A stretch of 64,000 nucleotides of DNA from Escherichia coli (GTDB lineage: Bacteria; Pseudomonadota; Gammaproteobacteria; Enterobacterales; Enterobacteriaceae): NCBI RefSeq assembly GCF_003018115.1, contig NZ_CP027457.1; one strand, 5' to 3'. The notes beneath the pieces are model-generated. The model saw only the letters and a list, made by a program, of their open reading frames with translations, made no database searches and was not told the origin of the DNA. Below, one piece after another: positions 3,530 to 40,877 of this stretch (positions are counted from its first letter, which is position 1; every line of letters starts with the position of its first letter). Both the position numbers and the translations under genes were made by a program.

Positions 3530-6500
3530 TCAACGAATACTGATGCCGGAAGCGGCTTTTTTGGTCACAATCACCGTACAGTCGGTGATATTGCCTGCCC
3601 CCTGATTGCCTTTCTGGAAAATCTTAAACTCCAGAGTGACGCTACCACCACCACTAGGCATATCAATAACTGCACTGTAACTACCGGGAATGGCCCCTTT
3701 AGTTTCTCTGGATGCGATTAATACGCCGTTTTTGCGAACTTCAAAACCATAACCCGTGTATCGCGTGCCTCCTGGGTTATTTCCGCTCCCCGGATCGTCA
3801 TACGCTATACCGTTAAAAATAATGGGCGGAATAATAATCTGGCGGTCAAAGTTATGATCATCGCTGATGGTGACTGTAACCGTACCGTTTGGTGTTTCCG
3901 TGTTACCCCACGTACCGACTTTTTTCGGGAAGGCTTTTGATACAGCTTTAACGAAATCCCCTCTGACCTGGGTCGCCTCCAGCATGCCCTTAATCGTACA
4001 GTTCTGGTTAATCGTGACATTGTTGAGCGTTCCTGAGTTCGCATTCACACTACCACTGATATCCGCATTTTTAGCGGTCAGCTTTCCGTCTGATGTCAGG
4101 GAAAATACCGGAGGACTGCCACCGCTGGTAATGGTGGGGGCCGTCAGGCGTTTCAGGAACACTTCATTCATGAATATCTGATCGCCCTGACCAACAAACA
4201 TCGGCTTTGTGTTGCCATTCGCAGGATTAATCATCGCAATCCTGTCTGCTGCCAGCAGCACCTGACTCTGCATGCCGTCAGGGGTGTTCTCAATACCGGC
4301 ACCGATACCCGCAATATAAAGGCGTCCGTCCTGCATCTGCTGCAGCTTCACTGCCCACATGCTGTTCAGGTTATTATTTGTATCAACCTGAACCTTCTGT
4401 ATCTGCTGGATTGCCGCACTCTGGTCTTCCAGTTTCTTATTGACGGTCTGTGTTATTTCATTGCTGACATCCGTTATGGACGTCCTGATTTCAGTCAGGT
4501 CAGGCGCAAGCTGACCGTTATCAATCTGCGTCCACAGCTCCTGAGCCAGATGGGTTTTCCCTATCTCGCCTTTGAAAAAATCCAGATAGCCTGATGCATC
4601 ATCACTCGGCTGACCGACAGCCTCCACGAATGCCGATTTGCCAACGGTGTTCACACTGCGAACGTAAAAATAATAATCATGGCCCGGTTTGATATTGATA
4701 CTGGCGGCTATCCAGTACAGTGCCGTACCAAGATAACGCGCGCTGGTTTCAACCTGCCTGATATCCGCAATCCGTTTTTCCGAGAACCAGAACTCAAACT
4801 GTACCGTCGGGTCATAAACCGCAAGATGCGGCGTGGCGGTTATCTGAAAATAGCCCGGCGTCAGCTCAATCCGCGACGGCGCTGCCGGTGCGGCAATCCG
4901 GAACGATACCGACGCCGGATCGCCCTGCTGCCCCCACGCATTTACTGCCCGGACTGTCAGCCTGTAGTTCCCCAGAGCCAGTTGTGTGAAGCGGTAAGTG
5001 GTTTCCGTCGTCCGGGCCGTGCTGACCAGCCGCTCACGGCCGTCATCCGCTGCCACGGTCAGGCGAAGCAGGAAGCTCACGCCCTTCACCACCTTCGGCG
5101 TGTCCCAGCGCGCCAGCACCTGGTATTCCCCGCTGTCTGCGGTGACTTCTGCGGTCAGGTGCTGCACCGCTGGCGGCGTGACACCATTTACCGTGCCGCT
5201 CTGGTCGCCGTCAAAGTGCGCCCCGTTATCCACGATGGCCTCTTTTTCCGGTACATGCTGCACGGCGGTGATGGCATACGTGCCGTCGTCGTTCTCACGG
5301 ATACTCACGCAGCGGAACAGGCGCTGGCGCAACGTCGACAGCTTCAGCCCCCATACGCTGTATTCAGCAACGCCGTCAGGAACACGGCTCACTTTCACCT
5401 TCACGCCGTCGGTGACGGACTGAACCTCCACGCTGACCGGACTCCCCTGCCCGTCAACCAGGCTTATCAGCGTGGTGCCGGAAGATGGCAGCGTGATTTC
5501 ACGGTCGAGCGTCAGCGTCCGGGTCTGGCTGTTTACCGCCAGCACGCGCCCGCCGGTGCGGATACCGGCATAGTCATCATCGCAGATTTCAATGACATCG
5601 CCCGGTACATGGCGAAGCCCTTCGGCACCCACGCTGAAGTCCACGGTCTGCGTTTCCAGCAGTTCTGTTTTAATCAGCCACAGCCCGGCGCGGTGTGCCT
5701 GCCCCCGGCTGGTACAGCCAAAAGCATCCATCTTCGTGACGTTACGACCGTAACGGGCAATGGCCTGCGTGTCCTCCACAAGCTCTGTCGCCGTCTCCCA
5801 GCCGTTATTCGGGTCAATCCAGTTCACCTCAACGGCATTATGGCGGTCCTTCAGGGCGCTGAAGCTGTAGCGGAACGGCGCACCATCATCCGGCATCACC
5901 ACATTACTGCGGTTATAGGTCCACACCTTATCCGACGGTCGGTCCTGCACGAACGTCAGCGTCTGCCCGTTCCATACCGGCATACAGCGCATCGCAGAGC
6001 AGAAATCACTGAGCACATCCCACGCCTTGCGCTGTGTGGTCAGGTACGCATTACAGGTGATGCGCGGCTCTGTGCCGCCAAAACCGTCCGGCACCGACTG
6101 ATCGCAATGCTGGCCGATGACATACAGCGCCCATTTGTCCACATCCGCCGCACCAAGACGTTTCCCCATGCCGTAGCGCGGATGGGTCAGCATATCCCAC
6201 AGACACCAGGCCATGTTGTTGCTGTATGCTGGCTTAAACGTTCCGTCCCAGATACCGCTGTATTGCCGCGTCTGCGGGTTATAGTTCGACGGCACCTGCA
6301 GAATGCGCCCGCGCAGATGATAATTACGGCTCACCTGCTGGCTGCCGAACTGCTCCGAATCCACCTGCACGCCGACCAGTGCCGTGTTCGGGTAGCACTG
6401 TTTCACATCGATGATTTCGGTGTATGACGACCAGAGCGTTTTGTTCTGCAGCTGGTCTGTGGTGCTGTCCGGCGTCATCCTGCGCATCCGTATATTGAAC

Positions 6501-27831: not shown

Positions 27832-28044
27832 TTGTCCCGTAAAATGACAGGAATTGTCAAAACCTTTGACGGCAAAAGCGGCAAGGGTCTTATCACCCCA
27901 TCCGATGGTCGTATCGATGTCCAGCTTCATGTTTCAGCGCTCAATCTCCGCGATGCAGAAGAAATTACCACCGGATTACGCGTGGAATTTTGCCGGATAA
28001 ATGGTCTGCGTGGCCCTTCAGCTGCCAATGTTTACCTTTCATGA
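27832..28044 (+). CDS. cspF: Cold shock-like protein CspF
   Basis: 70 aa, [23 protein letters not shown], CspF/CspH subfamily. Confidence 0.85.
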
Positions 28045-28339
28045 GCTATATTAAAGCTTTAATTTCAGGCCCCATCGGATCACACATGGAGAGTTTTTAT
28101 GAATAACCCCGTCTGTCTTGATGACTGGTTGATTGGCTTTAAAAGCTTATGCTGTACTTTGGCCGTAATAGCTCTGCTAATAATATAATAAGCAGACTCA
28201 TTGTGTTTAGGGACATTGTACTGGAAGAAAACATTTTAAACATCAGGCAAATAACCAAGTCACCAGCTAAATAATAAGTTAACAGACATGAGTCCCGGGA
28301 TGAGATTCAACATTACCATTGCCCCATTTAAAGCACAAA

Positions 28340-28368
28340 ACCCGCTCATCAGCGGGTTTTCTACTTTT
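28340..28368. terminator. Bidirectional hairpin terminator between convergent cspF and Q gene
   Basis: CCCGCT-CATC-AGCGGG stem flanked by A-run and T-run. Confidence 0.45.
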
Positions 28369-28465
28369 TCTTAACGTCGGGTATACAAAGCCCATCGTTG
28401 AAAAAATTTTATCCATATTTTTTGAAAAATGCAAACATCATGTCGCCATCTTCAGCAAAAATCAT

Positions 28466-29248
28466 TTATCTCGTCACCTTCCTCAATTGCGCTTCCGCGT
28501 ATGCTTCTTCCTGCCAGCACTTTGTTACCAGTTTACCAATGACGTCCGCATACCCCTTATACCACTGATAATCGGTCAGGTCTGGTACCAGCTTCTGGAC
28601 ATGACGTCGTGCCAGCGTGGTCGGTAAACGACTAAACCGGTTTCCATTACAACGCCCACAAATCTTATATACCGGTACGCCATGAAACCGGGTTCTTTTT
28701 TCATCCAGAACAATCCCTTTACCCTTACACCCTCTGCACGCTGTGCTGGCTTCGCCCTTACCATGGCAATGCTGACATAGTTCCTTCACCCATTCTTCCT
28801 TGATTACAGATTCCCCGCGTCTGTAGTGTTTCACCACTTCGCGCAATACATTATAAAATCCCGTACCTGAACAATGCTCACAGCGAGCCTTACTTGCCGC
28901 AGACCTGGAGTAATCAGCAAAGGCAAAACTCACGAGGTAAGGAATAATCTGTAACCGGATTTCTTCACTCAATTTGTTCAATGTCGGGTTATCCAGTGCC
29001 ATCGCGTAATTTAGCAGGCCTTCAATCGCAAACTGAGGGTCCTGAACACCAACTTTTGCCAGAAATAAGGCCAACCCAAGTGGTGCTTTCGACTGCACCA
29101 TCCCCTGCGCTGCCATTACATCCGTAATTGTTAAACAACCGGTGCCTGTCGCTGGAGCGTCATCGCTCAATTTTGGAGATTTTGGGGAGTAATATTTTGG
29201 TAAGGCTTCAAGGTTCATGCTCGTTCTCCACTTACGCCAGTACGCCAA
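28466..29248 (-). CDS. quuQ: Late-gene antiterminator Q (phage 82/21-type Q family)
   Basis: 260 aa ORF with Cys-rich zinc-binding region; start may be internal Met at about 29218. Confidence 0.85.
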   Translation of the reverse strand: MAYWRKWRTSMNLEALPKYYSPKSPKLSDDAPATGTGCLTITDVMAAQGMVQSKAPLGLALFLAKVGVQDPQFAIEGLLNYAMALDNPTLNKLSEEIRLQIIPYLVSFAFADYSRSAASKARCEHCSGTGFYNVLREVVKHYRRGESVIKEEWVKELCQHCHGKGEASTACRGCKGKGIVLDEKRTRFHGVPVYKICGRCNGNRFSRLPTTLARRHVQKLVPDLTDYQWYKGYADVIGKLVTKCWQEEAYAEAQLRKVTR

Positions 29249-30281
29249 TTGTCAGCGCGCGATCGATAAAACGAAATATCAGCTCCAGTTGGGAGCCATA
29301 CTTATCTTCAAATGCCACTGTATCCGTATGCAGCTCGTTGTGATGCTTTCTGCACAAAGGCAACACAAAGAGATCATGTGCTTTTGTTCCCATTCCGCCC
29401 TGCCCGTGACCAATCAGATGATGCGGATCGTCGGCTGGCATACCGCAGCAAGCACACGGCTGTGTCTTAACCCAACGTGTGTATTTCTCCTTAACCCAGC
29501 GGCGACGTTTAGGCAGCTTCATGAAAGATTCCGGAGACTCTGGATCAACGGTGATGCTTACCACCGTCTTTTCCTGTGGTGATTTTTGTTGCTGGTGGGC
29601 GTAAGGCAACGGTGCAAGATTTTTTGTGCGTTGTTTCAATATGCTGGTGGCGGTCTGCTCTCCCGGTACGATGTCGCTTTCGCGGTACACCGAGCAGATT
29701 TTTTCCGCTGGTAATCCCAGCGAACGACGCGATACAGCCTCAGGTAGTGCATCCACCACCTGATTGCAGACCGCCCACCAGGATAATTCAGCCAAAGATA
29801 ATTCCCGCTCCTGCGTACCGCTTATTGCGTGACGGATGACGTCAATCACCCATGCTGTCAGATTTTGTTGAGCAAGCAGCTCCAGTGATTCCGATGTCTG
29901 GTCACGCAGTTGGTTGTCGCAGTGCCAGCACAACACCATTGCGCCGGTACCATAACGGTGAATGACTGTTTCAGTGTGATGGTAATCGCCATTAGGCCAC
30001 TGGCAGGATGTAACATGACGTAATAGCCAGTCGGACAATGCGCCAACGCCGCCAGCAGCACGAATCACCCGTTCGTTACTAAAAAACGGCAGCAATGTTT
30101 TGTCTTCCGCCAGCGGCTGGCGAACGGCAGGAACGACTCCGGATGGCAGATTACGCATGCTTTTTGGTTCCGGTTCCACCAGCACTCGAGGATTATGAAA
30201 TATCTGTATGGATTCACGGCCCGGCTTAAGGACCACCAGCCCAAGCTCAGGCACCAGAACAGGTCTAAGTAATACCCGCAC
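29232..30281 (-). CDS. ydfU: YdfU-like DUF968 protein with C-terminal HNH-like Cys/His motif
   Basis: ORF track 29232-30320; trimmed to GTG with GGAGG Shine-Dalgarno, giving 349 aa. Confidence 0.75.
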   Translation of the reverse strand: MRVLLRPVLVPELGLVVLKPGRESIQIFHNPRVLVEPEPKSMRNLPSGVVPAVRQPLAEDKTLLPFFSNERVIRAAGGVGALSDWLLRHVTSCQWPNGDYHHTETVIHRYGTGAMVLCWHCDNQLRDQTSESLELLAQQNLTAWVIDVIRHAISGTQERELSLAELSWWAVCNQVVDALPEAVSRRSLGLPAEKICSVYRESDIVPGEQTATSILKQRTKNLAPLPYAHQQQKSPQEKTVVSITVDPESPESFMKLPKRRRWVKEKYTRWVKTQPCACCGMPADDPHHLIGHGQGGMGTKAHDLFVLPLCRKHHNELHTDTVAFEDKYGSQLELIFRFIDRALTIGVLA

Positions 30282-30282
30282 G

Positions 30283-30561
30283 TTACCTCCAGATCCGTTG
30301 CTGGAAAGTGCGGGACGCACGTGGTGGGCGTTCGGAATAAGGCAGCCTGACAGAGATTATCCAGTGCCGATAGTCGAGACTGAGAGCTTTCTTAACCTCG
30401 AACCCGCGCCTGCGGTAAGAATGAATCAGCCATTCGGCCTGTTCTGCAGTGCATGGAGGGTGCTGGAACCATTCAGACTTGAATGCGTGAGAATACCGCC
30501 CGTGCGTGCAGGCAAGAACGGGCGAATTATCAGAATTGTAATATTTTGCGTTGCGTGCCAT
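30283..30561 (-). CDS. Hypothetical 92-aa protein, translationally coupled to ydfU
   Basis: ORF stop lies 1 nt from ydfU GTG start; no family recognised. Confidence 0.4.
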   Translation of the reverse strand: MARNAKYYNSDNSPVLACTHGRYSHAFKSEWFQHPPCTAEQAEWLIHSYRRRGFEVKKALSLDYRHWIISVRLPYSERPPRASRTFQQRIWR

Positions 30562-30627
30562 CGGTTTTCTCCGGTGGCACGGTGTTACTCAGCGGGAGTT
30601 CAGCCCCGCGCAAGATTGTAGATGAGT

Positions 30628-30879
30628 TTATTCTCCTGAAAAAGCAGAAAAGCCAGCTTTTATTCCGATCTCTTTCAATGCCTGTAATGAAGTGACAAAC
30701 TCACCTTCGCGCAAGATAAATCCGTCCGTGACCCGAGCATCCACAAAATTAATTAACGCAGCCCCATTCTTTCGCAAACACATAATGCGGTAATGACTAA
30801 CAAGATTTCCATTTTCAACGCACACAGCATAGAGGCCATCTTCACAAAAAATTTTACGCAGTTCTTCGATGTTCATCAT
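30628..30879 (-). CDS. Small prophage protein, possibly Rem
   Basis: 83 aa MMNIEELRKIFCEDGLYAV; position between ydfU and hokD; identity recalled with low certainty. Confidence 0.45.
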   Translation of the reverse strand: MMNIEELRKIFCEDGLYAVCVENGNLVSHYRIMCLRKNGAALINFVDARVTDGFILREGEFVTSLQALKEIGIKAGFSAFSGE

Positions 30880-31095
30880 CAGAATCCTTCCGGATAATTA
30901 GCTCTCCCCTTTAAGGGACCATCCCTCTTATCCCTGCGCGCTACTTAAGTATTTTTGATTCTATTCCGGCACCGTCCAGAACTTCAAACGCGTTGAAAAT
31001 AAAAACAAAAACCCGCCGAAGCGGGTTAAGTGCGGGTGCGTTGAGGATGCCTGCCACATCAGAGGTGGCGAGGGATTTCTCCCCCGCCGGGTCTC

Positions 31096-31251
31096 TTACT
31101 CCTCAGGTTCGTAAGCTGTGAAGACAGCGACCTCCGTCTGGCCGGTTCGGATTCGTACCTCGCAGAGGTCTTTCCTCGTTACCAGTGCCGTCACTATGAC
31201 GGTTAAACAGATGACGATCAGGGCGATTAACATCGCCTTTTGCTGCTTCAT
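31096..31251 (-). CDS. hokD: Hok-family type I toxin HokD (RelF)
   Basis: Hand-translated 51 aa MKQQKAMLIALIVICLTVIVTALVTRKDLCEVRIRTGQTEVAVFTAYEPEE; antisense Sok RNA expected just upstream on plus strand. Confidence 0.85.
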   Translation of the reverse strand: MKQQKAMLIALIVICLTVIVTALVTRKDLCEVRIRTGQTEVAVFTAYEPEE

Positions 31252-31322
31252 AGCCTGCTTCTCCTGTCAACGCAAAGCAGAAGTGTCACCTTCGGTGCGA
31301 AACAGAGATGTCATGCTTTGGT

Positions 31323-31610
31323 TCAGAGAATGCGTTTGACCGCCTCGCTATATACTTCCGAGCGTTCTCTTTTCCCAACAGAAATCACGAAAACGACAAC
31401 TTTCTCGTCTATAACCTGGTATACAAGGCGATAGCCTGAAGACCGGAGCTTAATCTTGTAACAATCAGGCATACCACGGAGCTTGTTTGCTTCAATCCGG
31501 GGTGACTCAAGTACTTCAACCAGCTTCTTTTTCAACTGTTCACGTACCGTCGAGCCCAGCTTTCGCCATTCCTTTAGTGCCCGCTCGTCAAAATCCAGAA
31601 AATACGCCAT
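31323..31610 (-). CDS. relE: RelE mRNA interferase toxin
   Basis: 95 aa, RelE sequence. Confidence 0.9.
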   Translation of the reverse strand: MAYFLDFDERALKEWRKLGSTVREQLKKKLVEVLESPRIEANKLRGMPDCYKIKLRSSGYRLVYQVIDEKVVVFVISVGKRERSEVYSEAVKRIL

Positions 31611-31849
31611 CAGAGTTCATCCAGCGTCACACGTACTGGCTTAGGATTACGAAGCCGTTCTTTCACTATCTCCACAAGTTCAGCATCTTCATCACTCAGG
31701 AGTGTCTGTTTGAACGGCAAGCGTTCATTGTCAGCGATATACTCGAGCATGAGACGAAGCGCTTCAGAAGGAGTTACACCCATTTTTTCAAGCGCGGCGT
31801 AAGAACGCGCTTTAAGTTCATCGTCAATACGCAGGTTAATGCTACCCAT
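31610..31849 (-). CDS. relB: RelB antitoxin
   Basis: 79 aa, RelB sequence; 1-nt overlap with relE. Confidence 0.9.
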   Translation of the reverse strand: MGSINLRIDDELKARSYAALEKMGVTPSEALRLMLEYIADNERLPFKQTLLSDEDAELVEIVKERLRNPKPVRVTLDEL

Positions 31850-31873
31850 GTCTTACACCTCTTGTAATTACAA

Positions 31874-32179
31874 ATGTCATTACAAGTATCGCACTACAAC
31901 ATGCTTAGGGCAAGTCACGAAGGAAGTCAGAAAGTAGTCGTAAGAACGGTGATCACTGTCCGCTTTGTGCCAGGAGCAGCCATTGCTAAGTCCATCCTGT
32001 ATTGTGCAGGTCAGCTCGTTTTTAAAGAGTCCGGCCATCATCTTACTGGTACAGACACCATATACTTTGTGACGGTCAGGCTACATATGCACAACTCAAC
32101 TTATTCATCTATTTTTTGCTTTAGCATGTCAGTGTTGCTTTCTCGTCGGCGGGTGAGCGGTGACCTGACCTGTCGATAA
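31874..32179 (+). CDS. Hypothetical protein at the ydfV position
   Basis: 101 aa ORF, low-complexity, weak coding appearance. Confidence 0.35.
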   Translation: MSLQVSHYNMLRASHEGSQKVVVRTVITVRFVPGAAIAKSILYCAGQLVFKESGHHLTGTDTIYFVTVRLHMHNSTYSSIFCFSMSVLLSRRRVSGDLTCR

Positions 32180-32381
32180 AGGAACGTAACACGTTTTATG
32201 CAACACCCGCATGCGGCAGAAAATTATTGCCGAACGTTTACCCCTGTCAACAAGCTTTACTTTCTGAGGCGCGCCAGCCCGCGAGGAAAACAATCTGAAC
32301 ATCAAACAATTAATGACACAAGAAATACGATTAAAGATTTTTTTGTGCATGCCGATAGTGCTTTTTTAAAAGGAGAAATCT

Positions 32382-32714
32382 ATGTCTGTCACAATTCAGG
32401 GAAATACCTCAACCGTTATTTCAAACAACTCCGCCCCGGAAGGAACATCAGAAATAGCCAAAATCACAAGACAAATTCAGGTGCTGACTGAAAAGCTTGG
32501 GAAAATCTCATCGGAAGAGGGGATGACGACACAGCAGAAAAAAGAAATGGCTGCATTGGTACAGAAGCAAATTGAAAGCCTCTGGGCTCAACTGGAGCAG
32601 TTGTTAAGGCAGCAGGCAGAGAAAAAGAATGAAGACGCGACAGTTCAGCCTGATAAAAAAGAAGAGAAAAAAGACGATACAAATACCGCTGGCACCATTG
32701 ATATTTACGTCTAA
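32382..32714 (+). CDS. flxA: FlxA (FliA-regulated protein)
   Basis: 110 aa MSVTIQGNTSTVISNNSAPEGTSEIAKITRQIQVLTEKL. Confidence 0.85.
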   Translation: MSVTIQGNTSTVISNNSAPEGTSEIAKITRQIQVLTEKLGKISSEEGMTTQQKKEMAALVQKQIESLWAQLEQLLRQQAEKKNEDATVQPDKKEEKKDDTNTAGTIDIYV

Positions 32715-32724
32715 GTGACAGCCG

Positions 32725-32752
32725 TATTGTGGCCCTCATCGGGCCACTTTTC
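32725..32752 (+). terminator. Rho-independent terminator after flxA
   Basis: TGGCCC-TCATC-GGGCCA stem followed by T-rich run. Confidence 0.5.
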
Positions 32753-32899
32753 GCCATCAGCCTTTTCTTTAAAGACATATTATCTTTGTATCATTTCTGA
32801 TAGTTAACATTACAAGATATAAGTAATGGACGCACTCCCAATTAGTCTATTTAAATCGCCACGAGTTTAACTGACAACCCATGATCAATTATGAATTGC

Positions 32900-34600
32900 A
32901 ACTATTTCTGTAGTCACTTTTGTGGGGACAGTCCACAAAACTGCCAACTTCCGCTTCTTGCTCTTAGCGGACATTAGCATAGGCTATTTACCATAACGCC
33001 TCATTACGCGCACCGCCCAGACTGACTCAGCGCGTTTCTGGCATATCCCCGGTAAAACAAGTAACAAACCACCCGAAAATGAACACCAGAAACGCGACTT
33101 AAGAATCTACCCTATGAATGGATATGCACTCAACCGAATCGATCTTGGTTTCAATCTTTTTTATCGGGATCAGGCTTCTTTTTAGGTAACTTCGGGGGCT
33201 TAACTTGCTGATGACTTTGCGTTCGGCGCGTAAGCCAGGGATGGTCAGCTTTAGGTTTAACATAGTATTTTGAGCGTAAATCAATACGGGCATTATCCAC
33301 TCGTTCATGGACACTCTTTTCATCATCCAGTGGTATAGGCTCCGGGCCATCAACATACTTTTCCCAGCCCAGCGCTTTCCCGTCATACAGAACGTTAATT
33401 TCACCGTCAAAGTTCTCGCATACAGTAACAACCGAATGCCTAAGTCGATATCCCCGGCCCTCACTGCGTACCTGAAACGCACTGCTTTTGTACTGGAAAG
33501 TGAGATTTTTAGACAGAACGCGCTTCGCCTGTAGGCTGAAGATATAACCCAGTTCCTCTTCAGAATGGTGCACATCAAGATGAGCATTATCAGTAGTACG
33601 AGGCGACGTAGCGAACCGGTTGTTATAGGCTTCAATAAAGGTCGGCAACCATGCATTTGCTGTTTCAATATCACTGATATTCTGAAGCCGCATTTCTTTG
33701 ACCAGCCTGTCCTGTAGTGTCTGATTGGCGCGCTCTACCCGCCCTTTTGCCTGCGGGCTGTTGGCATGGATTGGCTCGATGCCCAGTGTCTTTATCGCAC
33801 GAGTGAACTGGGTCAGCTCACCTTCCCGCTCTGGGTTATTTACCCTGAATATACTGTGTCTATCAGAGTAGAGAGCGAGCGGTACGCCATGATCATTAAG
33901 GTAACCCCGGAGGGTTTCCATGTAAGCCCGGGTTGTTTCAGCAGGCACAAAACGCAACGCCATCAACGCACTGGTGGCATCATCAATGAAAACGATCAGT
34001 GTACATCTGGGGCCTCGATTTTCAAACCAGTCATGAGGTGAGCCATCAATCTGGATCAGTTCACCGTAAGATGGTCGTCGCATGCGGCGTTGATATATAC
34101 GGGCAATTTTACGACGGCGTTCACGCCATAACCCCTCTTCTATCATCCACTTTCTGAGAGTTTCAACGGATAAAGATAAACCGTGTATCTCGCGCAATTT
34201 TTCGCACGCAAACGTAGGTCCAAAATCAGCGTAACGGCCTTTGAGGAGTGAAATTACTGTTGCTCTGAATTCAGTAGAAAAGGAATTATTAGGACGCTTT
34301 CCACGTCGGTGGGAAACCAGACCAGAAGGCCCTTCATTTCTATACCGTTGCACCAGACGTTTAACCTGCCGAATAGAAATGCCAATGCGTGCCGCAGCTT
34401 GTTCCTGAATAATCTGAAGTCGGTGGAGTTCCTTATGACTCATCGTAACAGTCTCTTTGATCATGAAAAATCCCCCAGAGAATTGTCTGGGGACATTTTA
34501 GAATGGTTCAAAGGGGACATTACAGCTTGGTGTTAACAATAGCCTGCTTCTCCGTGCCTTTCGGCACGTAAGAGGCTAACCTACATGTGTCTAGCATGAA
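32900..34600 (-). mobile_element. Insertion sequence carrying a single DDE transposase (IS481/ISNCY-type); ends not resolved
   Basis: Single 437-aa transposase ORF; terminal inverted repeats could not be assigned by eye. Confidence 0.55.
33151..34464 (-). CDS. DDE transposase with N-terminal HTH and integrase-core (rve) catalytic domain
   Basis: 437 aa; D (IQIDGS), D (YSDRHS), E (GRVERANQ) triad spacing typical of rve. Confidence 0.85.
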   Translation of the reverse strand: MIKETVTMSHKELHRLQIIQEQAAARIGISIRQVKRLVQRYRNEGPSGLVSHRRGKRPNNSFSTEFRATVISLLKGRYADFGPTFACEKLREIHGLSLSVETLRKWMIEEGLWRERRRKIARIYQRRMRRPSYGELIQIDGSPHDWFENRGPRCTLIVFIDDATSALMALRFVPAETTRAYMETLRGYLNDHGVPLALYSDRHSIFRVNNPEREGELTQFTRAIKTLGIEPIHANSPQAKGRVERANQTLQDRLVKEMRLQNISDIETANAWLPTFIEAYNNRFATSPRTTDNAHLDVHHSEEELGYIFSLQAKRVLSKNLTFQYKSSAFQVRSEGRGYRLRHSVVTVCENFDGEINVLYDGKALGWEKYVDGPEPIPLDDEKSVHERVDNARIDLRSKYYVKPKADHPWLTRRTQSHQQVKPPKLPKKKPDPDKKD

Positions 34601-34798
34601 ATTGGCCTCAGATTAATGTTAAGCGTCTTGCAGGACGCGTAATGTTAACTGGGGCTTTTCTCTATCTGCCGTTGGTGTCCATGCCCGAGGCAGATAGCCT
34701 CAAGCACCCGCAGTCATTCTACTTAACTAAGATTTCCCCGCAAACCGTTTTTGTCCAGCACAGTAAATATCCAACTAAACCAATGGAGTTCGCTGTAT

Positions 34799-34978
34799 TT
34801 ACCGCCAGTATTCAATGCACATGACCGCCATGAACACCCCTAAAAAAAGGGCATTTATATATCCAAATATTAATATCAAAACATCAACTTTTTCCATATA
34901 CCTTGCTGTGAAGATGATGGGCATACATGATGCGAACAACCAGAACGCAACAAACAAAAACTGCAATGCGTTTTTCAT
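34799..34978 (-). CDS. Candidate small two-TM membrane protein (59 aa)
   Basis: AGGAGG Shine-Dalgarno 4 nt before ATG; MKNALQFLFVAFWLFASCMPIIF...; no homolog recognised. Confidence 0.35.
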   Translation of the reverse strand: MKNALQFLFVAFWLFASCMPIIFTARYMEKVDVLILIFGYINALFLGVFMAVMCIEYWR

Positions 34979-35652
34979 TATTCCTCCTACAATCAATGTG
35001 CAATTACATTTAAACACACCTCAATTTGGCCGGACATATAAATATCTAAACCAGAAAAAATCACTTACATAGCGTTACAAACTCTTTAGTCTAAAGGTTC
35101 ATCGTAAAACATTCCCCATACTTATCAGTCCGTTCCGCGCCAGGTAGCTCATTGCCTTATCTGGCAACCTGTAATCAGGTTTCCGCTTTTTCAGTTGGCT
35201 GGTCGTTTAACCGACATAGTTAATCCATTAATCTAGTTGCCGGATGTTGGTGGATTTTCGCGTTTTAGTTGTTCATAAAAGTGCACAGCTTTAACCAGTT
35301 CTTCTGATGTAACTGGGACTGGTGAGGCAGTGAATAAGGCCTGAATTTGATAGTTCGGCCTGTCGTTACAATCCTCTTTTTTCGGTACATATTTCCAGTC
35401 ACCAGACCACTACTTCCCCTGAAAGTCCGTAACGCCTTTTTTCACGTAGCGATATCGCCATGCCACTGGTTTTGCTTGCCCCGCCGTTTCATGCCCTTCC
35501 TGATAATTAATCTCGCTCATTCATCGCCCCACTCATCACAATATGCTTCGACCGGAGTTTTTCCCGCTTCATAGTCATCACGCTAGGATTCGACATCAGC
35601 AGCACTTCCACCGCGTAACTCACCATAGTCCATTAATAGTTCATCCCGCTCT

Positions 35653-35660
35653 TCAAAACT
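35653..35660. repeat. 8-bp target site duplication TCAAAACT (left copy) of IS66-family element
   Basis: Identical 8-mer immediately outside both inverted repeats. Confidence 0.7.
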
Positions 35661-35741
35661 GTAAGCGTCGTCTCAGCACCGTCTGGCAGATCCTGAAATT
35701 CCTGAGAGAATAGTGGACACCAAATATGGTGGACGCAATCC

Positions 35742-36146
35742 ATGAAATCATTAACCGCAGTGCGTAAAAAAAGCCCTAATTATCCCGTTGAGTTCAAAAT
35801 CAAAATGGTTGAACTCTCGCATCGACCAGAGATCTCCGTAGCGCAACTCGCTCGTGAGCATGGGATCAACGATAATTTGCTGTTCAAGTGGCGCCAGTAC
35901 TGGCGCGAAGGAAAACTACGTCCTCCTTCAACAACAGAAAACAACGTGCCTGAGCTGCTCCCGATAACACTTGATGCCGAAGATGTTGTCCCTACAACCT
36001 CCCCCCGGTCACAACCTGTAGCTGCTGCGACACCTGAATCACTCAATATCAGCTGTGAAGTGACGTTCCGGCACGGATCACTCCGTCTGAATGGTGCCAT
36101 CAGCGAAAATATCCTGAACCTGCTGATACGGGAGCTCAAACGTTGA
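35742..36146 (+). CDS. IS66-family accessory protein TnpA (orf1)
   Basis: 134 aa, HTH-like N-terminus, first ORF of element. Confidence 0.85.
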   Translation: MKSLTAVRKKSPNYPVEFKIKMVELSHRPEISVAQLAREHGINDNLLFKWRQYWREGKLRPPSTTENNVPELLPITLDAEDVVPTTSPRSQPVAAATPESLNISCEVTFRHGSLRLNGAISENILNLLIRELKR

Positions 36147-36490
36147 TCCCATTACCATCAGGGACAAAGATCTGGCTGGTCGCTGGCATCACCGATATGA
36201 GAAACGGCTTCAACGGCCTGGCGGCAAAGGTGCAGACGACGCTGAAAGACGATCCGATGTCAGGTCACGTTTTTATCTTCCGTGGGCGTAATGGCAGTCA
36301 GGTAAAGCTCCTCTGGTCTACCGGCGATGGACTGTGTCTGCTGACCAAACGGCTGGAGCGCGGCCGCTTCGCCTGGCCGTCAGCCCGGGATGGCAAAGTG
36401 TTCCTCACACCGGCACAGCTGGCGATGCTGCTGGAAGGTATCGACTGGCGGCAGCCTAAAAGACTGCTTACGTCCCTGACTATGTTGTAA
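36143..36490 (+). CDS. IS66-family TnpB (orf2)
   Basis: 115 aa, 4-nt overlap with tnpA. Confidence 0.85.
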   Translation: MIPLPSGTKIWLVAGITDMRNGFNGLAAKVQTTLKDDPMSGHVFIFRGRNGSQVKLLWSTGDGLCLLTKRLERGRFAWPSARDGKVFLTPAQLAMLLEGIDWRQPKRLLTSLTML

Positions 36491-36538
36491 GCCTCTTTAT
36501 CCTGGTCGACGCTGAATGAGCCTGGTAATATACCCGGT

Positions 36539-38074
36539 ATGAGCAGCTCACTTCCTGACGATATCAATGCACTGAAACGTCTCCTTGCCGAACAGGAGGC
36601 GCTGAACCGTGCCCTGCAGGAAAAGCTGAACGAGCGTGAACGCGAAATAGACCATCTGCAGGCACAGCTGGATAAGCTGCGCCGGATGAACTTCGGCAGC
36701 CGCTCGGAAAAAGTCTCCCGTCGTATCGCACAGATGGAAGCTGACCTGAAGGCACTTCAGAAAGAAAGTGATACCCTTACCGGTCGGGTTGACGACCCGG
36801 CCGTGCAGCGCCCGCTGCGTCAAACCCGCACCCGCAAACCGTTCCCCGAATCACTCCCCCGCGATGAAAAACGGCTGCTGCCGGCAGCGTCATGCTGCCC
36901 GGAATGTGGAGGCTCGCTGAGCTATCTGGGTGAGGATGCCGCCGAACAGCTGGAGCTGATGCGCAGCGCCTTCCGGGTTATCCGGACTGTACGTGAAAAG
37001 CATGCCTGTACTCAGTGCGATGCCATCGTGCAGGCCCCCGCGCCTTCACGGCCCATCGAGCGGGGTATCGCAGGACCGGGGCTGCTGGCCCGCGTGCTGA
37101 TCTCAAAGTATGCAGAGCACACCCCGCTGTACCGCCAGTCTGAAATGTACGGCCGCCAGGGCGTGGAGCTGAGTCGTTCACTGCTGTCGGGCTGGGTGGA
37201 TGCATGCTGCCGGCTACTGTCACCGCTGGAAGAAGCGCTTCAGGACTATGTGCTGACTGACGGTAAGCTCCATGCTGATGACACGCCTGTCCCGGTGCTG
37301 TTGCCAGGCAATAAGAAAACGAAGACCGGGCGGTTATGGACCTACGTTCGTGACGACCGTAACGCCGGGTCAACGCTGGCGCCGGCGGTGTGGTTCGCTT
37401 ACAGCCCGGACAGAAAAGGCATCCATCCGCAGACCCATCTTGCGGGGTTCAGTGGTGTACTGCAGGCGGATGCATACGCCGGGTTCAACGAGCTGTACCG
37501 GGATGGCCGGATAACGGAAGCCGCCTGTTGGGCTCACGCCCGCCGTAAAATCCACGATGTGCACGTTCGCACCCCGTCAGCCCTGACGGAGGAAGCGCTG
37601 AAACGGATCGGCGAACTGTACGCCATCGAGGCAGAGATAAGGGGAATGACGGCGGAGCAGCGCCTTGCCGAACGTCAGTTGAAAACGAAACCGCTGCTGA
37701 AATCCCTGGAAAGCTGGCTGCGTGAAAAGATGAAAACCCTGTCGCGACACTCAGAACTGGCGAAAGCGTTCGCATACGCCCTGAACCAGTGGCCGGCGCT
37801 GACGTACTATGCAGATGATGGCTGGGCTGAGGCGGACAATAACATCGCTGAAAATGCGTTGCGGATGGTCAGTCTGGGCCGCAAAAACTACCTGTTCTTC
37901 GGTTCGGATCATGGAGGAGAGCGGGGAGCGCTGCTGTACAGCCTGATCGGGACGTGCAAACTGAACGGAGTGGAGCCAGAAAGCTACCTCCGCTATGTCC
38001 TTGACGTCATAGCCGACTGGCCGATAAACCGGGTCGGCGAACTGCTCCCCCTGGCGCGTAGCACTGCCGACTGA
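36539..38074 (+). CDS. IS66-family transposase TnpC (orf3)
   Basis: 511 aa, N-terminal leucine zipper, Cys-x2-C zinc motif, DDE core. Confidence 0.9.
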
Positions 38075-38115
38075 ATAACACATCCCCGTCAATACGGTTC
38101 TTGCTGCACGCTTAC

Positions 38116-38123
38116 TCAAAACT
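38116..38123. repeat. 8-bp target site duplication TCAAAACT (right copy)
   Basis: Matches left copy at 35653-35660. Confidence 0.7.
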
Positions 38124-38593
38124 GATGTTATATTTAGCTGAACAAAAATCAGCCACTTTGTTCTTCCTCATCGTCTTTTATTTCGTGGTATGAGTAATTG
38201 CAGTAGTTAAAGAAAATTTCTTATGCTCCGTCATGAATTTCCTCAGGTGTTGCGTCATCGTCCACTTCGAATACATCCTCAAAATCTCCACCAGCTATTC
38301 CCGTTTCAATAATAATTTTGAACTTTCGCATTTCACTACCGCCCTTTCGGGCGGCCTCCTGATGTTCTGAGGGTGCAGAAATCCATCCGGTTAAGGATTA
38401 AATTTTATTTACAGAACTGAATTTAATTATTCAGATATACGTATCTGTAGCCTTACGAATCTACTCACTGGATGCCTCTTTCATAAAAATAATCCAGTGG
38501 GTTTTATCGTTTTTTCCCTGTTCGTTGACAGATAACAGGTTTTCTGTCTGTCAGTGCCAGAATCTGGCTTACCGGTATTTGCGTTTCATTCCA

Positions 38594-38950
38594 TTAAAAA
38601 ATCAGAACGCCGTGCGGCCTCAACACCCGAAAGGCTTCTTTAAATCTCTGTCGCGAATCATCACGCCAGGCATCTTTATTCAGCCGTCCATATTTCTTTC
38701 CCATCCAGGCGTTATCACCAACACTCTCAAGATGCGGAGGGTCTAATACAACCATCGAAAAAGATGCGTCTGCAAATGATAATGCACGAAAATCTGCGAT
38801 AATGTCAGGGCTGATAATCAAGCGTCTCCCATTGCGTAATGTGTATCCTTCTTTTCTGATATCGCTGAATATCGCCCGTTCGTCAGACTTATCGAACCAG
38901 AACATGCGGCTGCCACAGCACATATCAAGAATGGTTGCCGGTGCACTCAC
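38594..38950 (-). pseudogene. Truncated SAM-dependent methyltransferase-like ORF (motif I then DPPH)
   Basis: 118 aa is too short for a full Rossmann MTase; in-frame TAA followed by about 32 further sense codons. Confidence 0.4.
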
Positions 38951-39369
38951 TGCGCCACGTCCTGAAAATTACCCTGATAGAAAGCCAGTATGCGCTGCAT
39001 AACTTCGCTCTTCCGGCACTCGCGACAGATTATGTTTAGGCGACTGTCGTAGCGACGTATTTCTCCGTCAGGTGATGACCAGATAAGGTCCGGATCAACC
39101 ACAGCAGGTTTCTTCACCTTTGCCCTCGAGAGTTTTTTGCGGGCGTTTTGCCAGTCCTTACGCGCCTGTTCAGAGGGGAATAACCCGTAGCCGGAGTTGT
39201 ATACATCGCCACTGGCTACCAGCTCTCTGGCAAGAACGCTCATCAGATATCTAGTCGCACCTGTTTTAGCTTCCAGTTGCCGTAACGTCTCACGGCCGCT
39301 CTGGCGCACGAGTTCCACCACCTGCCATTTAATTTTTTCCCGCTCTTCTTGTGTAAAAACTTTTGCCAC
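38947..39369 (-). CDS. Hypothetical 140-aa prophage early-operon protein
   Basis: Translationally coupled (4-nt overlap) to downstream MTase-like ORF; no family recognised. Confidence 0.45.
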   Translation of the reverse strand: MAKVFTQEEREKIKWQVVELVRQSGRETLRQLEAKTGATRYLMSVLARELVASGDVYNSGYGLFPSEQARKDWQNARKKLSRAKVKKPAVVDPDLIWSSPDGEIRRYDSRLNIICRECRKSEVMQRILAFYQGNFQDVAQ

Positions 39370-39409
39370 AAGTCCCCCTTAAAATTACCTCATGACCTGA
39401 AATCAACAC

Positions 39410-40429
39410 TTATCCTCTGAAACCAGGCGGAATTTCTGTATCCGGTTCAGAAATATGATTAACACAACGCTGTACAGGTGAACGTCCCAGGCGGATGACC
39501 AGTTCGTCCCATTTTTCGCGGAGCTTTGACGGGCTCATGATGTTTTTTACCCAGAATGGATCTCGCTGAACCCGACCAAACATTTCGCAAATTTGTCTGT
39601 GGCTTCTGCCATCCAGCATCCGCATTGTGCGCACGTCATTGGCCCAGGCAGTCCAGTTAGGCTCTTTTGGTCGCATGATCTCGCCATCATCACTGGCTGC
39701 CTGTTCGTAGAGACCCACGATCCGCCCCCAGATCCACTGCGCACACGCCAAATCCTCCCTGCTACCCCACTGGCGTTTTTTCGCACTAAACACAACCGCG
39801 TCGGAGTTCCGGGTTAAAAAATCCTGTTCAGTCGTCTGCGGGTCCGGTTGCGAAGCTTCCGGACGAAAAGTGTTTTTATTCTCTGTAGTAATCTCTGTTG
39901 TATTCTCTGTAAGATCATCAGGCCATTTTGACCCGATGACATTGGGTCGTTTTGAACCAATGGAGCGTTTCATTTTGACCTCTTCCATCGTGTCATTTTG
40001 ACCTGATGGAGCGGCGCATTTTGAACCGATGGATTCGCTCAATTTGCCACCATCTAAAAGCTCGCTCCCATAGTTGATCGTGTAGAAATTGGTCATATCG
40101 CGCTTTGATTTATTGAGCTTTTCACAACGCAAAAGCCCCAGCGTTTTCAGACTTGCAAACGCGCGCTTTAACGTTGACTCTGACCAGAATGGGAACTGTT
40201 CCAGCCATTGTTCCGTTGTGTTATAAATCCAGCGAACACCATCACATTCCATGCCGGAGTTGGTATCTCTCAACCAGTAGTGCAGTTGTTGCAAAACAAT
40301 GGCTTCGTTTAAGCCAATTTTCATTGCCAGCTGCGTGTTTATAACCAGTGGACGTTCAGCAAAAAGAAGGCTCATAATTCCATCCAGCTTTTTGTTGGTA
40401 TTGCTGTCGATACGCAAGTTTGAAAGCAA
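39410..40429 (-). CDS. Replication initiator / replisome organiser (lambda O-like), start uncertain
   Basis: N-terminal HTH-like domain; gene contains five direct iteron repeats encoding (S/V)IGSK repeats; sits in early-right operon after the cro-like dicC. Confidence 0.65.
   Translation of the reverse strand: MLSNLRIDSNTNKKLDGIMSLLFAERPLVINTQLAMKIGLNEAIVLQQLHYWLRDTNSGMECDGVRWIYNTTEQWLEQFPFWSESTLKRAFASLKTLGLLRCEKLNKSKRDMTNFYTINYGSELLDGGKLSESIGSKCAAPSGQNDTMEEVKMKRSIGSKRPNVIGSKWPDDLTENTTEITTENKNTFRPEASQPDPQTTEQDFLTRNSDAVVFSAKKRQWGSREDLACAQWIWGRIVGLYEQAASDDGEIMRPKEPNWTAWANDVRTMRMLDGRSHRQICEMFGRVQRDPFWVKNIMSPSKLREKWDELVIRLGRSPVQRCVNHISEPDTEIPPGFRG
39920..40035. repeat. Candidate replication origin iterons: five direct repeats of about 19 bp (consensus CATTTTGAMCNGATGG) at about 23-bp spacing, AT-rich region adjacent
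   Basis: Repeats read directly in sequence inside the O-like gene, as for lambda ori. Confidence 0.6.
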
Positions 40430-40877
40430 TTGCTTTTTCTATAAGTTCGTCAGTTTCACGATCCACTACGGCAGGATCAGCAAAAAGCAGTCCGGACTCC
40501 ACCACATCGCCATATTCTTTGTTTAACCCGGCGATCATGCACGTGATGCTTTTTCCGTCAGTAATTTCACGATACAACCTGAAATCATTAATCCGGATAG
40601 CCTCCATAATTGCAGGCACTAGCGCCGTGAACTTTTCACGCTTATCCCTGGTGTCGATAGCCTTCCAGCGTTCAAATATCTTCACTCGATTAACGCCAAG
40701 CGCTCGCTGATCAATCGCGCCACCTTCATATGTGACACGCTGAACATCGATGTTCGGGCGCTCTTTCAAAGCCCAGAATGCTTCAGTGATTAATATCGTC
40801 GCCTGCTCCTGTGTCATTCCTGGTCGACATATCCAGGCATCCAGAGCCTCACGAGCCTGTTCAGGAGTGATTTTCAT
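40356..40877 (-). CDS. Hypothetical 173-aa protein directly downstream of dicC (possibly YdaT-like)
   Basis: Position equivalent to ydaT/cII in lambdoid early-right operons; family call from memory only. Confidence 0.45.
   Translation of the reverse strand: MKITPEQAREALDAWICRPGMTQEQATILITEAFWALKERPNIDVQRVTYEGGAIDQRALGVNRVKIFERWKAIDTRDKREKFTALVPAIMEAIRINDFRLYREITDGKSITCMIAGLNKEYGDVVESGLLFADPAVVDRETDELIEKAIAFKLAYRQQYQQKAGWNYEPSFC

Follow-up and report, generated by a model that had tools for sequence, protein, structure and literature searches.

The locus and its features

This study concerns a short segment between two insertion sequence (IS) elements on a chromosome of Escherichia coli (RefSeq assembly GCF_003018115.1, contig NZ_CP027457.1). 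The window is the whole stretch of this contig that was analysed, 64,000 nucleotides (nt), and all coordinates refer to it unless another locus is named. The segment carries an open reading frame (ORF) of 59 amino acids (aa), oriented as the early-right operon of the phage, and the 5′ leader of a hok toxin mRNA that is separated from its toxin gene, hokD. The two elements and the features between them are the following.

31265-34538, minus strand: ISEsa1-like (IS1202-family) transposon of 3274 bp, recognized by its transposase, inverted repeats and duplication.
34538-34709, minus strand: orphaned 5′ leader of a hok mRNA, recognized by Rfam (RF01794).
34580-34660, plus strand: candidate gene of the antisense RNA Sok, by analogy with Sok of plasmid R1.
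34710-34752, minus strand: inferred hok promoter, TTGCGG - 16 nt - TAGAAT, read from the sequence directly upstream of the leader 5′ end.
34799-34978, minus strand: 59-aa ORF with an ATG start, MKNALQFLFVAFWLFASCMPIIFTARYMEKVDVLILIFGYINALFLGVFMAVMCIEYWR (subfamily A), a predicted two-helix membrane protein.
34983-34988, minus strand: Shine-Dalgarno (SD) sequence AGGAGG, 4 nt before the ATG.
35102-35520, minus strand: pseudogene homologous to WP_001289994 (171 aa) and WP_001529162 (104 aa), from tblastn.
35520-35660, minus strand: C-terminal 47 codons of a 58-aa gene (WP_000753058 family) with one in-frame stop, from tblastn and the junctions.
35661-38115, plus strand: IS66-family element (ISEc22-like) of 2455 bp, recognized by its ORFs, termini and duplication.

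RefSeq gives the gene order ydfT(Q)-ydfU-rem-hokD-relE-relB-ydfV-flxA, ISNCY transposase, segment, IS66-family ISEc22-like element, DUF7167, methyltransferase and DUF977. Judged by these genes, the neighbourhood belongs to a lambdoid prophage of the Qin type in the E. coli chromosome. Many complete E. coli genomes match positions 34480-35740 with 100% identity, and the segment shares 90-96% identity with intact lambdoid prophages and phages. The intact order in these relatives is DUF7167 - 58-aa gene - WP_001289994-like gene - (ORF) - hok leader - hokD. Some otherwise identical genomes (MB57, ETEC4089, ETEC1702) hold an extra IS1 copy inside the 1.26-kb segment.

The original prediction, a model's note made from the sequence alone, described a decayed segment of about 1 kb between two IS elements, lacking an intact long ORF and showing frame-broken coding remnants on the minus strand. 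This description is borne out. The longest ORFs in 34539-35660 have 85 aa (plus strand), 75 aa (plus strand) and 72 aa (minus strand), the ISEsa1-like and IS66-family elements form the left and right borders, and the remnants are the two pseudogenes found by tblastn. The 59-aa ORF had been called the one well-formed feature. It is the only intact protein-coding feature, but an intact hok leader/sok region is present as well, at 34538-34709.

We read the segment as the remains of the early-right ('nin-like') region of a Qin-type prophage, stranded between two insertion elements and holding a real 59-aa gene and an orphaned hok control region. The probability of this reading is put at roughly 70%. 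Overall, the segment is a case of ordinary prophage decay with two points of interest, an unannotated gene for a small membrane protein and the preserved other half of the hokD locus.

The K-12 strain MG1655 matches the window with 99.96% identity over 27977-33335, and the match resumes at 40598. K-12 has therefore deleted the region from the interior of the ISNCY transposase ('ydfW') through ydfX. This deletion in Qin amounts to 7.3 kb (window 33336-40597) and has left 'ydfW' of the ISEsa1-like transposase. For this reason, nothing is known from K-12 of the hok leader, the 59-aa gene or the IS66-family element.

The 59-aa ORF and its distribution

A hydrophobic 59-aa frame behind a consensus AGGAGG had been predicted, and it is present with its ATG start and 4-nt spacing. 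Conservation in related prophages was expected of a real gene and has been found. Subfamily A DNA occurs in 1,568 of 5,426 complete E. coli genomes and is also carried by the induced temperate phages PhiR42_1, vB_EcoS-640R1 and vB_EcoS-813R8. A paralogue with 41% identity and substitutions of the coding type is described in the next section.

The ORF is located within an AT-rich stretch of ~470 bp between the stop codon of the upstream gene and the hok promoter. The ORF has a GC content of 37%, and the flanks next to it have 32% and 39%. Two loci (L136 and L152) share the upstream gene family and the hok promoter but lack this cassette, which is therefore a moron-like insertion. It shows two properties of morons, a distinct composition and presence or absence among related phages. 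Rearranged contexts of the ORF (L034, L065) were uninformative. A palindrome precedes the gene by about 105 nt, counted from the ATG.

35084-35096, no strand assigned: palindrome CTTTAGaCTAAAG, from the alignment and sequence reading.

The paralogous locus (L192, ~705-720) has CTTCAGtCTGAAG at the aligned place, with both arms changed. The palindrome could function as an operator or in processing. In this genome, the gene is separated from the phage early promoter by the IS66-family element, which lies 680 bp upstream, so expression is doubtful here.

Three phage records annotate the opposite strand instead of the ORF.

34815-35072, plus strand: antisense ORF of 85 aa, named 'hornerin' in ON470612 and ON470619 and 'hypothetical protein' in PV340562.

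This frame was considered as a gene and rejected. It is not conserved in subfamily B, and the substitutions in its frame are mostly nonsynonymous. On this pattern the antisense 'hornerin' ORF is probably a mis-annotation, and it should be removed from the two phage records that carry the name.

A distant paralogue and the coding constraint

An exhaustive phmmer/HMMER search over 1.84 billion protein representatives identified a 59-aa paralogue, named subfamily B (41% identity, E 1e-8), with the sequence MRKIL(M/V)YLCISIWIVISCVPIILTSEYLTEAS(I/R)MALMFGHANALCIGVFISIIYIECWR. In pairwise BLASTP, A and B align over the full length without a gap and are 41% identical and 69% similar (E 1e-18). A word-indexed search, which returned only E. 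coli and Shigella relatives of at least 74% identity and many broken variants, had suggested a species-restricted orphan; this view was overturned by subfamily B. A profile search with both subfamilies yielded no third subfamily.

Subfamily B occurs once per genome in 1,045 of the 5,426 complete E. coli genomes, including ST131, APEC O2:K1 and strain 83972. The exact sequence is found on at least 1,000 contigs and bears the JGI name 'uncharacterized membrane protein'. It sits in a heavily degraded Rac-type prophage remnant adjoining ttcA. The ORF lies directly upstream of hok in both subfamilies. hok/sok is intact in the A loci; in subfamily B, a hok 3′ remnant starts ~55 nt past the ORF stop, and the hok promoter and leader have been lost. 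In E. coli of phylogroup B2 (L195, the ST131 chromosome, 4173-6358; L192, 829-1130), the prophage remnant consists of integrase and DUF1627 fragments, the paralogue and the hok 3′ remnant. A frameshifted metal ABC permease gene follows the Rac-type remnant next to ttcA, the Rac attachment site. The paralogue and the hok remnant fall within one 661-bp match, for which none of the RefSeq records listed has any annotation.

The comparison of A and B at the DNA level carries the case for a gene. Over the 180 nt of the ORF, A and B are 59% identical and need no gap; in the flanks, identity amounts to 50% and 41%, with 15 and 13 gap columns. Codon position 2 of the ORF has the highest identity (70%), followed by position 1 (58%) and position 3 (48%). 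The Nei-Gojobori method gives proportions of nonsynonymous (pN) and synonymous (pS) differences of 0.35 and 0.70, respectively, and a dN/dS ratio of ~0.24. Translation of the aligned DNA yields a BLOSUM62 score of 145 in the frame of the ORF; the other five frames score between -5 and 62 and contain 0-8 stops per sequence. Random mutation at 74 sites kept the start, the stop and an open frame in 0.15% of trials, and the observed score was obtained in 0 of 100,000. A 59-codon ORF in AT-rich DNA is by itself not beyond chance; it is raised above chance because it is conserved in a distant paralogue. On these sequence comparisons, the 59-aa ORF is very probably a real protein-coding gene. Small membrane proteins are systematically missed by annotation, and this one lacks annotation in all RefSeq records listed although subfamilies A and B reach the genome counts given above.

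Several observations weigh against a gene. The codon-position periodicity between A and B is not significant on its own (chi-square ~3.4, 2 d.f.). There are only two subfamilies, both confined to E. coli and Shigella. No RefSeq record among those listed annotates the ORF of either subfamily, and no family or fold match offers a functional clue. No sigma-70-like promoter and no consensus terminator were found for the ORF, in a scan that also misses the hok and sok promoters.

Further such points come from the variation within subfamily A, as seen in 171 copies taken from IMG/VR, from metagenomes and from the window. Of these, 167 have an intact ORF, and frameshifted and read-through variants occur in the protein database. 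The SD sequence is polymorphic, with AGGAGG in 87 copies and AGGGGG in 84. All 12 segregating substitutions (A16V, M28I, V31I, I37M, Y40H, A43V, L44I, V48G, F49S, V52G, M53T, Y57C) are nonsynonymous, seven of them at codon position 2. A neutral simulation expects ~3 synonymous changes and gives a probability of 0.016-0.04 for none. Variable sites make up 6.1% of the ORF and 8.7% and 7.2% of the flanks, which we do not count as a density below that of the flanks; there is therefore no sign of recent purifying selection. The polymorphism of subfamily B comprises two sites, both nonsynonymous, and is too sparse for use. A non-coding verdict from a dN/dS-type test within the subfamily was set aside in view of the comparison between A and B. 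The nonsynonymous excess in A, which conflicts with clear purifying selection over the long term, could result from relaxed selection in cryptic prophages plus chance, or from diversifying selection.

These data bear first on a chance frame in an AT- and T-rich spacer, hydrophobic by virtue of T-rich codons and hitch-hiking with a young, widespread hok module. Such an origin would agree with an ORF that evolves within A as fast as its flanks, with 12 of 12 changes nonsynonymous, with a polymorphic SD sequence, and with the lack of a family match and of annotation in the RefSeq records listed; two phage annotation pipelines even picked the opposite strand. However, the paralogue keeps the start, the stop and 59 codons without insertions or deletions at 59% DNA identity, next to flanks that can barely be aligned. 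The BLOSUM score of 145 against at most 62, the simulated ORF retention of 0.0015 and the dN/dS of ~0.24 point the same way, and a chance frame is considered improbable.

Slightly less probable still is a protein that serves the hok module as a functional partner, either as a second small toxin or as a Hok-modulating membrane factor, and is not an independent moron. Two lineages with ORFs that differ at 41% of DNA sites both have the ORF directly ahead of hok. It is also present in 50 of the 54 metagenomic contigs that have this hok promoter and enough upstream sequence. Yet the same promoter is also found at hok loci that lack the cassette, and a neighbour of this kind is missing from most hok loci (plasmid R1, hokW, chromosomal hokA-E). 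Subfamily B has kept the ORF despite the destruction of hok, and we know of no requirement of Hok for a partner.

That the conserved unit acts as a nucleic acid (in hok regulation, as an operator or terminator, or as an antisense gene) and the ORF is incidental is very improbable: the upstream palindrome has changed on both arms between the subfamilies, the cassette always adjoins the hok promoter and conservation within a subfamily is uniform over ORF and flanks, but between A and B conservation is limited to the ORF and does not extend to the flanks or to the hok promoter, which B has lost along with the leader, the conservation is specific to one frame, the antisense ORF is unconserved, and Rfam gave no match outside the hok leader.

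The preferred reading, an independent protein-coding gene, makes the 59-aa gene a defined candidate with conserved residues and a conserved neighbour, hok. The carriers of subfamily B include ST131 and other B2 pathogens.

The orphaned hok leader

The second point of interest is the hok leader. Its match to RF01794 reaches 104.1 bits against a gathering score of 59 (E 9e-24) and covers model positions 1-157 of 157. The model spans 157 nt and ends at the hok AUG. The leader has a tac-like 5′ end, GGGUGCUUGAGG, and retains the SD hairpin and the mok ATG (34596-34594). Mok is truncated to 25 aa, and the hok start codon has been destroyed (ATG to ATT) at the transposon junction. The leader in the window ends in ...GGCTAT, followed directly by TGTTAACA, with which the transposon tip starts. 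The leader RNA accordingly reads ...GGCUAU and then UGUUAACA, where the intact form has ...GGCUAUGAAG. The leader continues directly into a hokD identical to that of K-12 in five relatives with an intact locus, namely phage vB_EcoS-640R1 and four E. coli prophages. In the window, no Hok reading frame comes directly after the leader; the hokD coding sequence (31096-31251) is 3.3 kb off.

The plus strand forms a strong stem-loop at 34604-34656, followed by UUUUC, with a folding energy of -32.8 kcal/mol (z = -4.5). The region 34580-34660 is what we take to be the Sok gene with its promoter, on the model of plasmid R1 hok/sok. The -35 hexamer of the putative sok promoter is CGTGCC in the window versus TTGACC in intact alleles. 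The inferred hok promoter is conserved across the 171 sequences except at two sites. A consensus promoter scan called no promoter on either strand of the segment; the same scan misses the hok and sok promoters. The only terminator-like hairpin from the scan (35166-35181, plus strand) was discarded, as it is not conserved in intact homologues. The leader remnant is a regulatory fossil that may still produce Sok. In annotation, 34538-34709 deserves the label hok leader/sok remnant.

The ISEsa1-like transposon and the origin of relBEF

The left border of the segment separates the hok leader from its toxin gene. The parts of the transposon and its target are as follows.

33151-34464: transposase (ISNCY/IS1202 family), NCBIfam NF033594 equivalog, 456 bits against a cut-off of 250.
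32382-32714, plus strand: flxA, transposon cargo.
31874-32179, plus strand: ydfV, transposon cargo.
31610-31849: relB, transposon cargo.
31323-31610: relE, transposon cargo.
31096-31251, minus strand: hokD coding sequence, third gene behind relB-relE, its SD sequence and ATG retained from the duplicated 15 bp.
34539-34553 (hok-leader side) and 31250-31264 (beside the hokD ATG): 15-bp target-site duplication ATAGCCTGCTTCTCC, 100% identical, 3289 bp apart.

RefSeq names the transposase 'IS1202-like element ISEsa1 family'. The terminal inverted repeats match at 22 of 30 positions, and with the family transposase and the target duplication the element has the marks of the IS1202 family. Homology to intact hok loci ends within the hok ATG, at 34539, and is taken up again at 31265; the BLAST alignments overlap by 16 bases. 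Hok loci with an empty site (L003, L005-L008) hold a single copy of the 15 bp, as the transposon account requires. The 15-bp repeat, the inverted repeats and the IS1202-family transposase thus identify the left border as the end of a cargo-carrying transposon inserted at the hok SD sequence and start codon.

In our reading, an ISEsa1-like transposon with relBE, ydfV and flxA entered the hok SD sequence and start codon and duplicated 15 bp. The insertion severed the hok promoter, the leader, the mok start and sok from the toxin gene. hokD became the third gene of a relBE operon, the classical relBEF arrangement. The integration of relBE into hokD had already been noted (Ramisetty and Santhosh, 2016, cited in PMC6379469). 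The segment preserves the 'missing half' of the hokD/relBEF locus of K-12 and shows directly how relBE came to lie in front of hokD.

The transposon at other hok and pnd loci

Plasmid searches recovered the relBE-carrying unit, 99% identical, from plasmids of Enterobacter, Citrobacter, Salmonella and E. coli. At five sites both flanks are readable, and in each of them the element lies within a hok-family gene and has its own local duplication.

Window: hokD of Qin, duplication GGAGAAGCAGGCTAT.
L131: hok of an IncF plasmid, duplication GGAGAAGAAGGCCAT.
L189: hok of a Citrobacter IncFIB plasmid (different cargo), duplication of 16 bp.
L130: pnd of an IncI plasmid, duplication TGGAGGGGCTATGAT.
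L191: pnd of an IncK plasmid, duplication of 16 bp.

Across these loci the unit has a length of 3274-3301 bp, and its cargo is relBE with ydfV and flxA or other genes. In every hok and pnd case, the duplication begins directly after the 3′ arm of a conserved hairpin, GCC-GNAA-GGCA. Each insertion created a relB-relE-hok operon and left the hok promoter, the mok start and sok orphaned. When genomes were scanned at species level with the 22-nt tip of the element (…CAGCTTGGTGTTAACA), two more transposase-side junctions in hok leaders came up, in Pseudocitrobacter and Kluyvera.

An Enterobacter hormaechei plasmid (L190, 3054-3128) has two tips facing each other across 15 bp of hok-SD-like sequence, CAGGCCTTCTTCTCC. 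Such an arrangement of tip, 15 bp and tip would be expected if the first insertion restored the target and a second copy then entered it. Copies of the IS alone are found outside hok loci, in Enterobacter sp. Ag1 (L197, 2267-3886, ~1.6 kb, 99.7% identical) and in the gut isolate MGYG-HGUT-00110 (L198). No target duplication was seen at these two copies. It may therefore be the cargo-carrying derivative that prefers hok, or the preference may not be absolute. Within the 3274-bp unit, no convincing inverted repeat was found at the low end of the 1.6-kb IS proper.

These insertions raise the possibility that the relBE-carrying ISEsa1-like transposon homes to the hairpin at which translation of hok-family genes (hokD, R1-type hok, pnd) is initiated, duplicates the 15-16 bp with the SD sequence and start codon and captures the toxin behind relBE, a conflict between toxin-antitoxin (TA) systems. 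The odds of this proposal are judged to be even. As a weaker addition to it, the 59-aa protein may be a third component of prophage hok modules. If homing is true, the origin of the classical relBEF operon is explained, and ISEsa1 gains both a duplication length and a target. The occurrence of the same element at unrelated plasmid hok and pnd loci suggests a target-specific insertion that rewires one toxin system under another. This would be relevant to TA systems, to the choice of IS targets and to plasmid stability. The searchable literature gave no description of the relBE vehicle or of a targeting of hok by ISEsa1 or IS1202.

Pseudogenes and the right-hand element

The right part of the segment consists of two pseudogenes of small phage genes. 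In the tblastn alignment with WP_001289994, the pseudogene at 35102-35520 is interrupted by two in-frame stops, shifts frame near 35203 and lacks 30 codons. PGAP labels it 'frameshifted; internal stop' in the identical W5-6 sequence. The neighbouring 58-aa gene has been split by the IS66-family element, and its first 14 codons lie on the other side, at 38115-38156. The tblastn search of the flanking remnants, proposed in the original prediction as a way to find what was lost, names genes of the WP_001289994/WP_001529162 type and of the WP_000753058 family.

The IS66-family element has three ORFs of the tnpA, tnpB and tnpC type (35742-36146, 36143-36490 and 36539-38074) with a match to PF01527. 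It ends in GTAAGCG...CGCTTAC and is flanked by an 8-bp duplication, TCAAAACT, at 35653-35660 and 38116-38123. The ORFs, termini and duplication are those of the IS66 family, and the RefSeq name is ISEc22 family. Beyond the element, the DUF7167 gene (38152-38331, minus strand) contains an in-frame stop; the decay therefore reaches past the segment.

The predicted membrane protein and its proposed role

The hydropathy profile has two hydrophobic stretches with a short polar loop between them, which reads ARYMEKVD in A and SEYLTEAS in B. AlphaFold2, run on a shallow alignment, models helices at 2-27 and 30-58 with a mean predicted local distance difference test (pLDDT) score of 73. The two hydropathy peaks and the two-helix model agree with the two transmembrane (TM) segments claimed at the outset. 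Residues invariant between A and B are W13, S17, C18, P20, I21, I22, T24, Y27, L36, F38, G39, N42, A43, L44, G47, V48, F49, I55, E56, W58 and R59. Among them, G39xxxA43xxxG47 forms a small-residue face on helix 2, a conserved GxxxAxxxG motif. A basic N terminus, together with the acidic loop of subfamily B, points to an N-in/C-in topology.

Scans with Pfam, NCBIfam and PHROG assigned the 59-aa protein to no family; subfamily B had only a sub-threshold match to DUF4212. PADLOC returned 0 families at E <= 10 for both subfamilies. The Hok/Gef models of Pfam and NCBIfam gave no match at E <= 1, and two helices are predicted, not the one of Hok. As to a type I toxin in general, the protein is small and hydrophobic, and no signal of an antisense RNA came from Rfam or from the promoter scan, which misses the hok and sok promoters too. 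A sequence search of the PDB with the family profile had 0 matches. When the AlphaFold2 model was compared with BFVD by Foldseek, the 186 matches were weak, with none at E <= 0.001, and uninformative, since every one was a generic helical hairpin. No description of the 59-aa ORF peptides was found in the searchable literature.

In the proposed mechanism, the protein would insert into the inner membrane as an N-in/C-in helical hairpin and might self-associate through the G39xxxA43xxxG47 face of helix 2. It would act at the membrane on behalf of the prophage and either exclude other phages by blocking their entry or perturb the membrane as a small toxin. Such a toxic or exclusion activity is a tentative suggestion, less likely than not. 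The roles named in the original prediction (toxin, holin-like protein or superinfection-exclusion factor) are guesses.

Comparison with known systems

The relBEF operon of K-12 (relB, relE and relF, the latter being hokD) is located in Qin and has identical genes, with 99.96% sequence identity over 27977-33335. The genome of the window differs in that it keeps the intact transposase, the transposon end, the second 15-bp copy, the hok leader/sok and the 59-aa gene, all of which were lost in K-12. With hok/sok systems, the leader shares the full-length Rfam match, the mok start, the SD hairpin and the Sok-type terminator stem-loop, and hokW/sokW of Shiga toxin (Stx) phages is 91-93% identical to it. 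In contrast to these systems, the toxin frame is detached, the hok ATG has become ATT, and hokD is 3.3 kb away behind relBE.

In the IS1202 family, with ISEsa1 and the ISAjo2 group that targets dif sites, target-specific insertion is known; the element of the window shares the family transposase and has imperfect terminal repeats. ISEsa1 is listed as 1609 bp without a detectable target duplication (PMC10132070). The unit described here differs from this entry by its length of 3274-3301 bp, by relBE and further cargo, and by duplications of 15-16 bp in the translation-initiation regions of hok and pnd.

The 59-aa protein was compared with three kinds of small membrane protein. GhoT is a small two-helix membrane toxin. 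GhoT/OrtT (57 aa) resembles the 59-aa protein in size, in two hydrophobic helices and in the near absence of soluble tails. There is, however, no sequence relationship in Pfam, NCBIfam or PADLOC, and no antitoxin partner has been identified for the 59-aa protein. The resemblance is architectural only.

Class II holins, such as the pinholin S21 of phage 21, also have two TM helices, a predicted N-in/C-in topology and a small-xxx-small zipper on helix 2, which in S21 is G40xxxS44xxxG48. The 59-aa protein differs in lacking a charged C-terminal tail (it ends in IEYWR), a dual start and a PHROG match to holins. Holin genes belong to the lysis cassette, beside the endolysin and downstream of Q, whereas the 59-aa gene is located upstream of Q, between the replication genes and hok. 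A holin is unlikely because of this wrong place in the phage genome and the missing charged tail.

The exclusion morons of the HK97 gp15 type show no sequence or significant fold relationship to the 59-aa protein, for which no promoter or terminator of its own was found in the consensus scan. The gene shares with the phage morons for small membrane proteins (e.g. HK97 gp15) the low-GC cassette between conserved phage genes, the presence/absence polymorphism and the temperate carriers. As a phage moron that encodes a small membrane protein, it is a known kind of gene.

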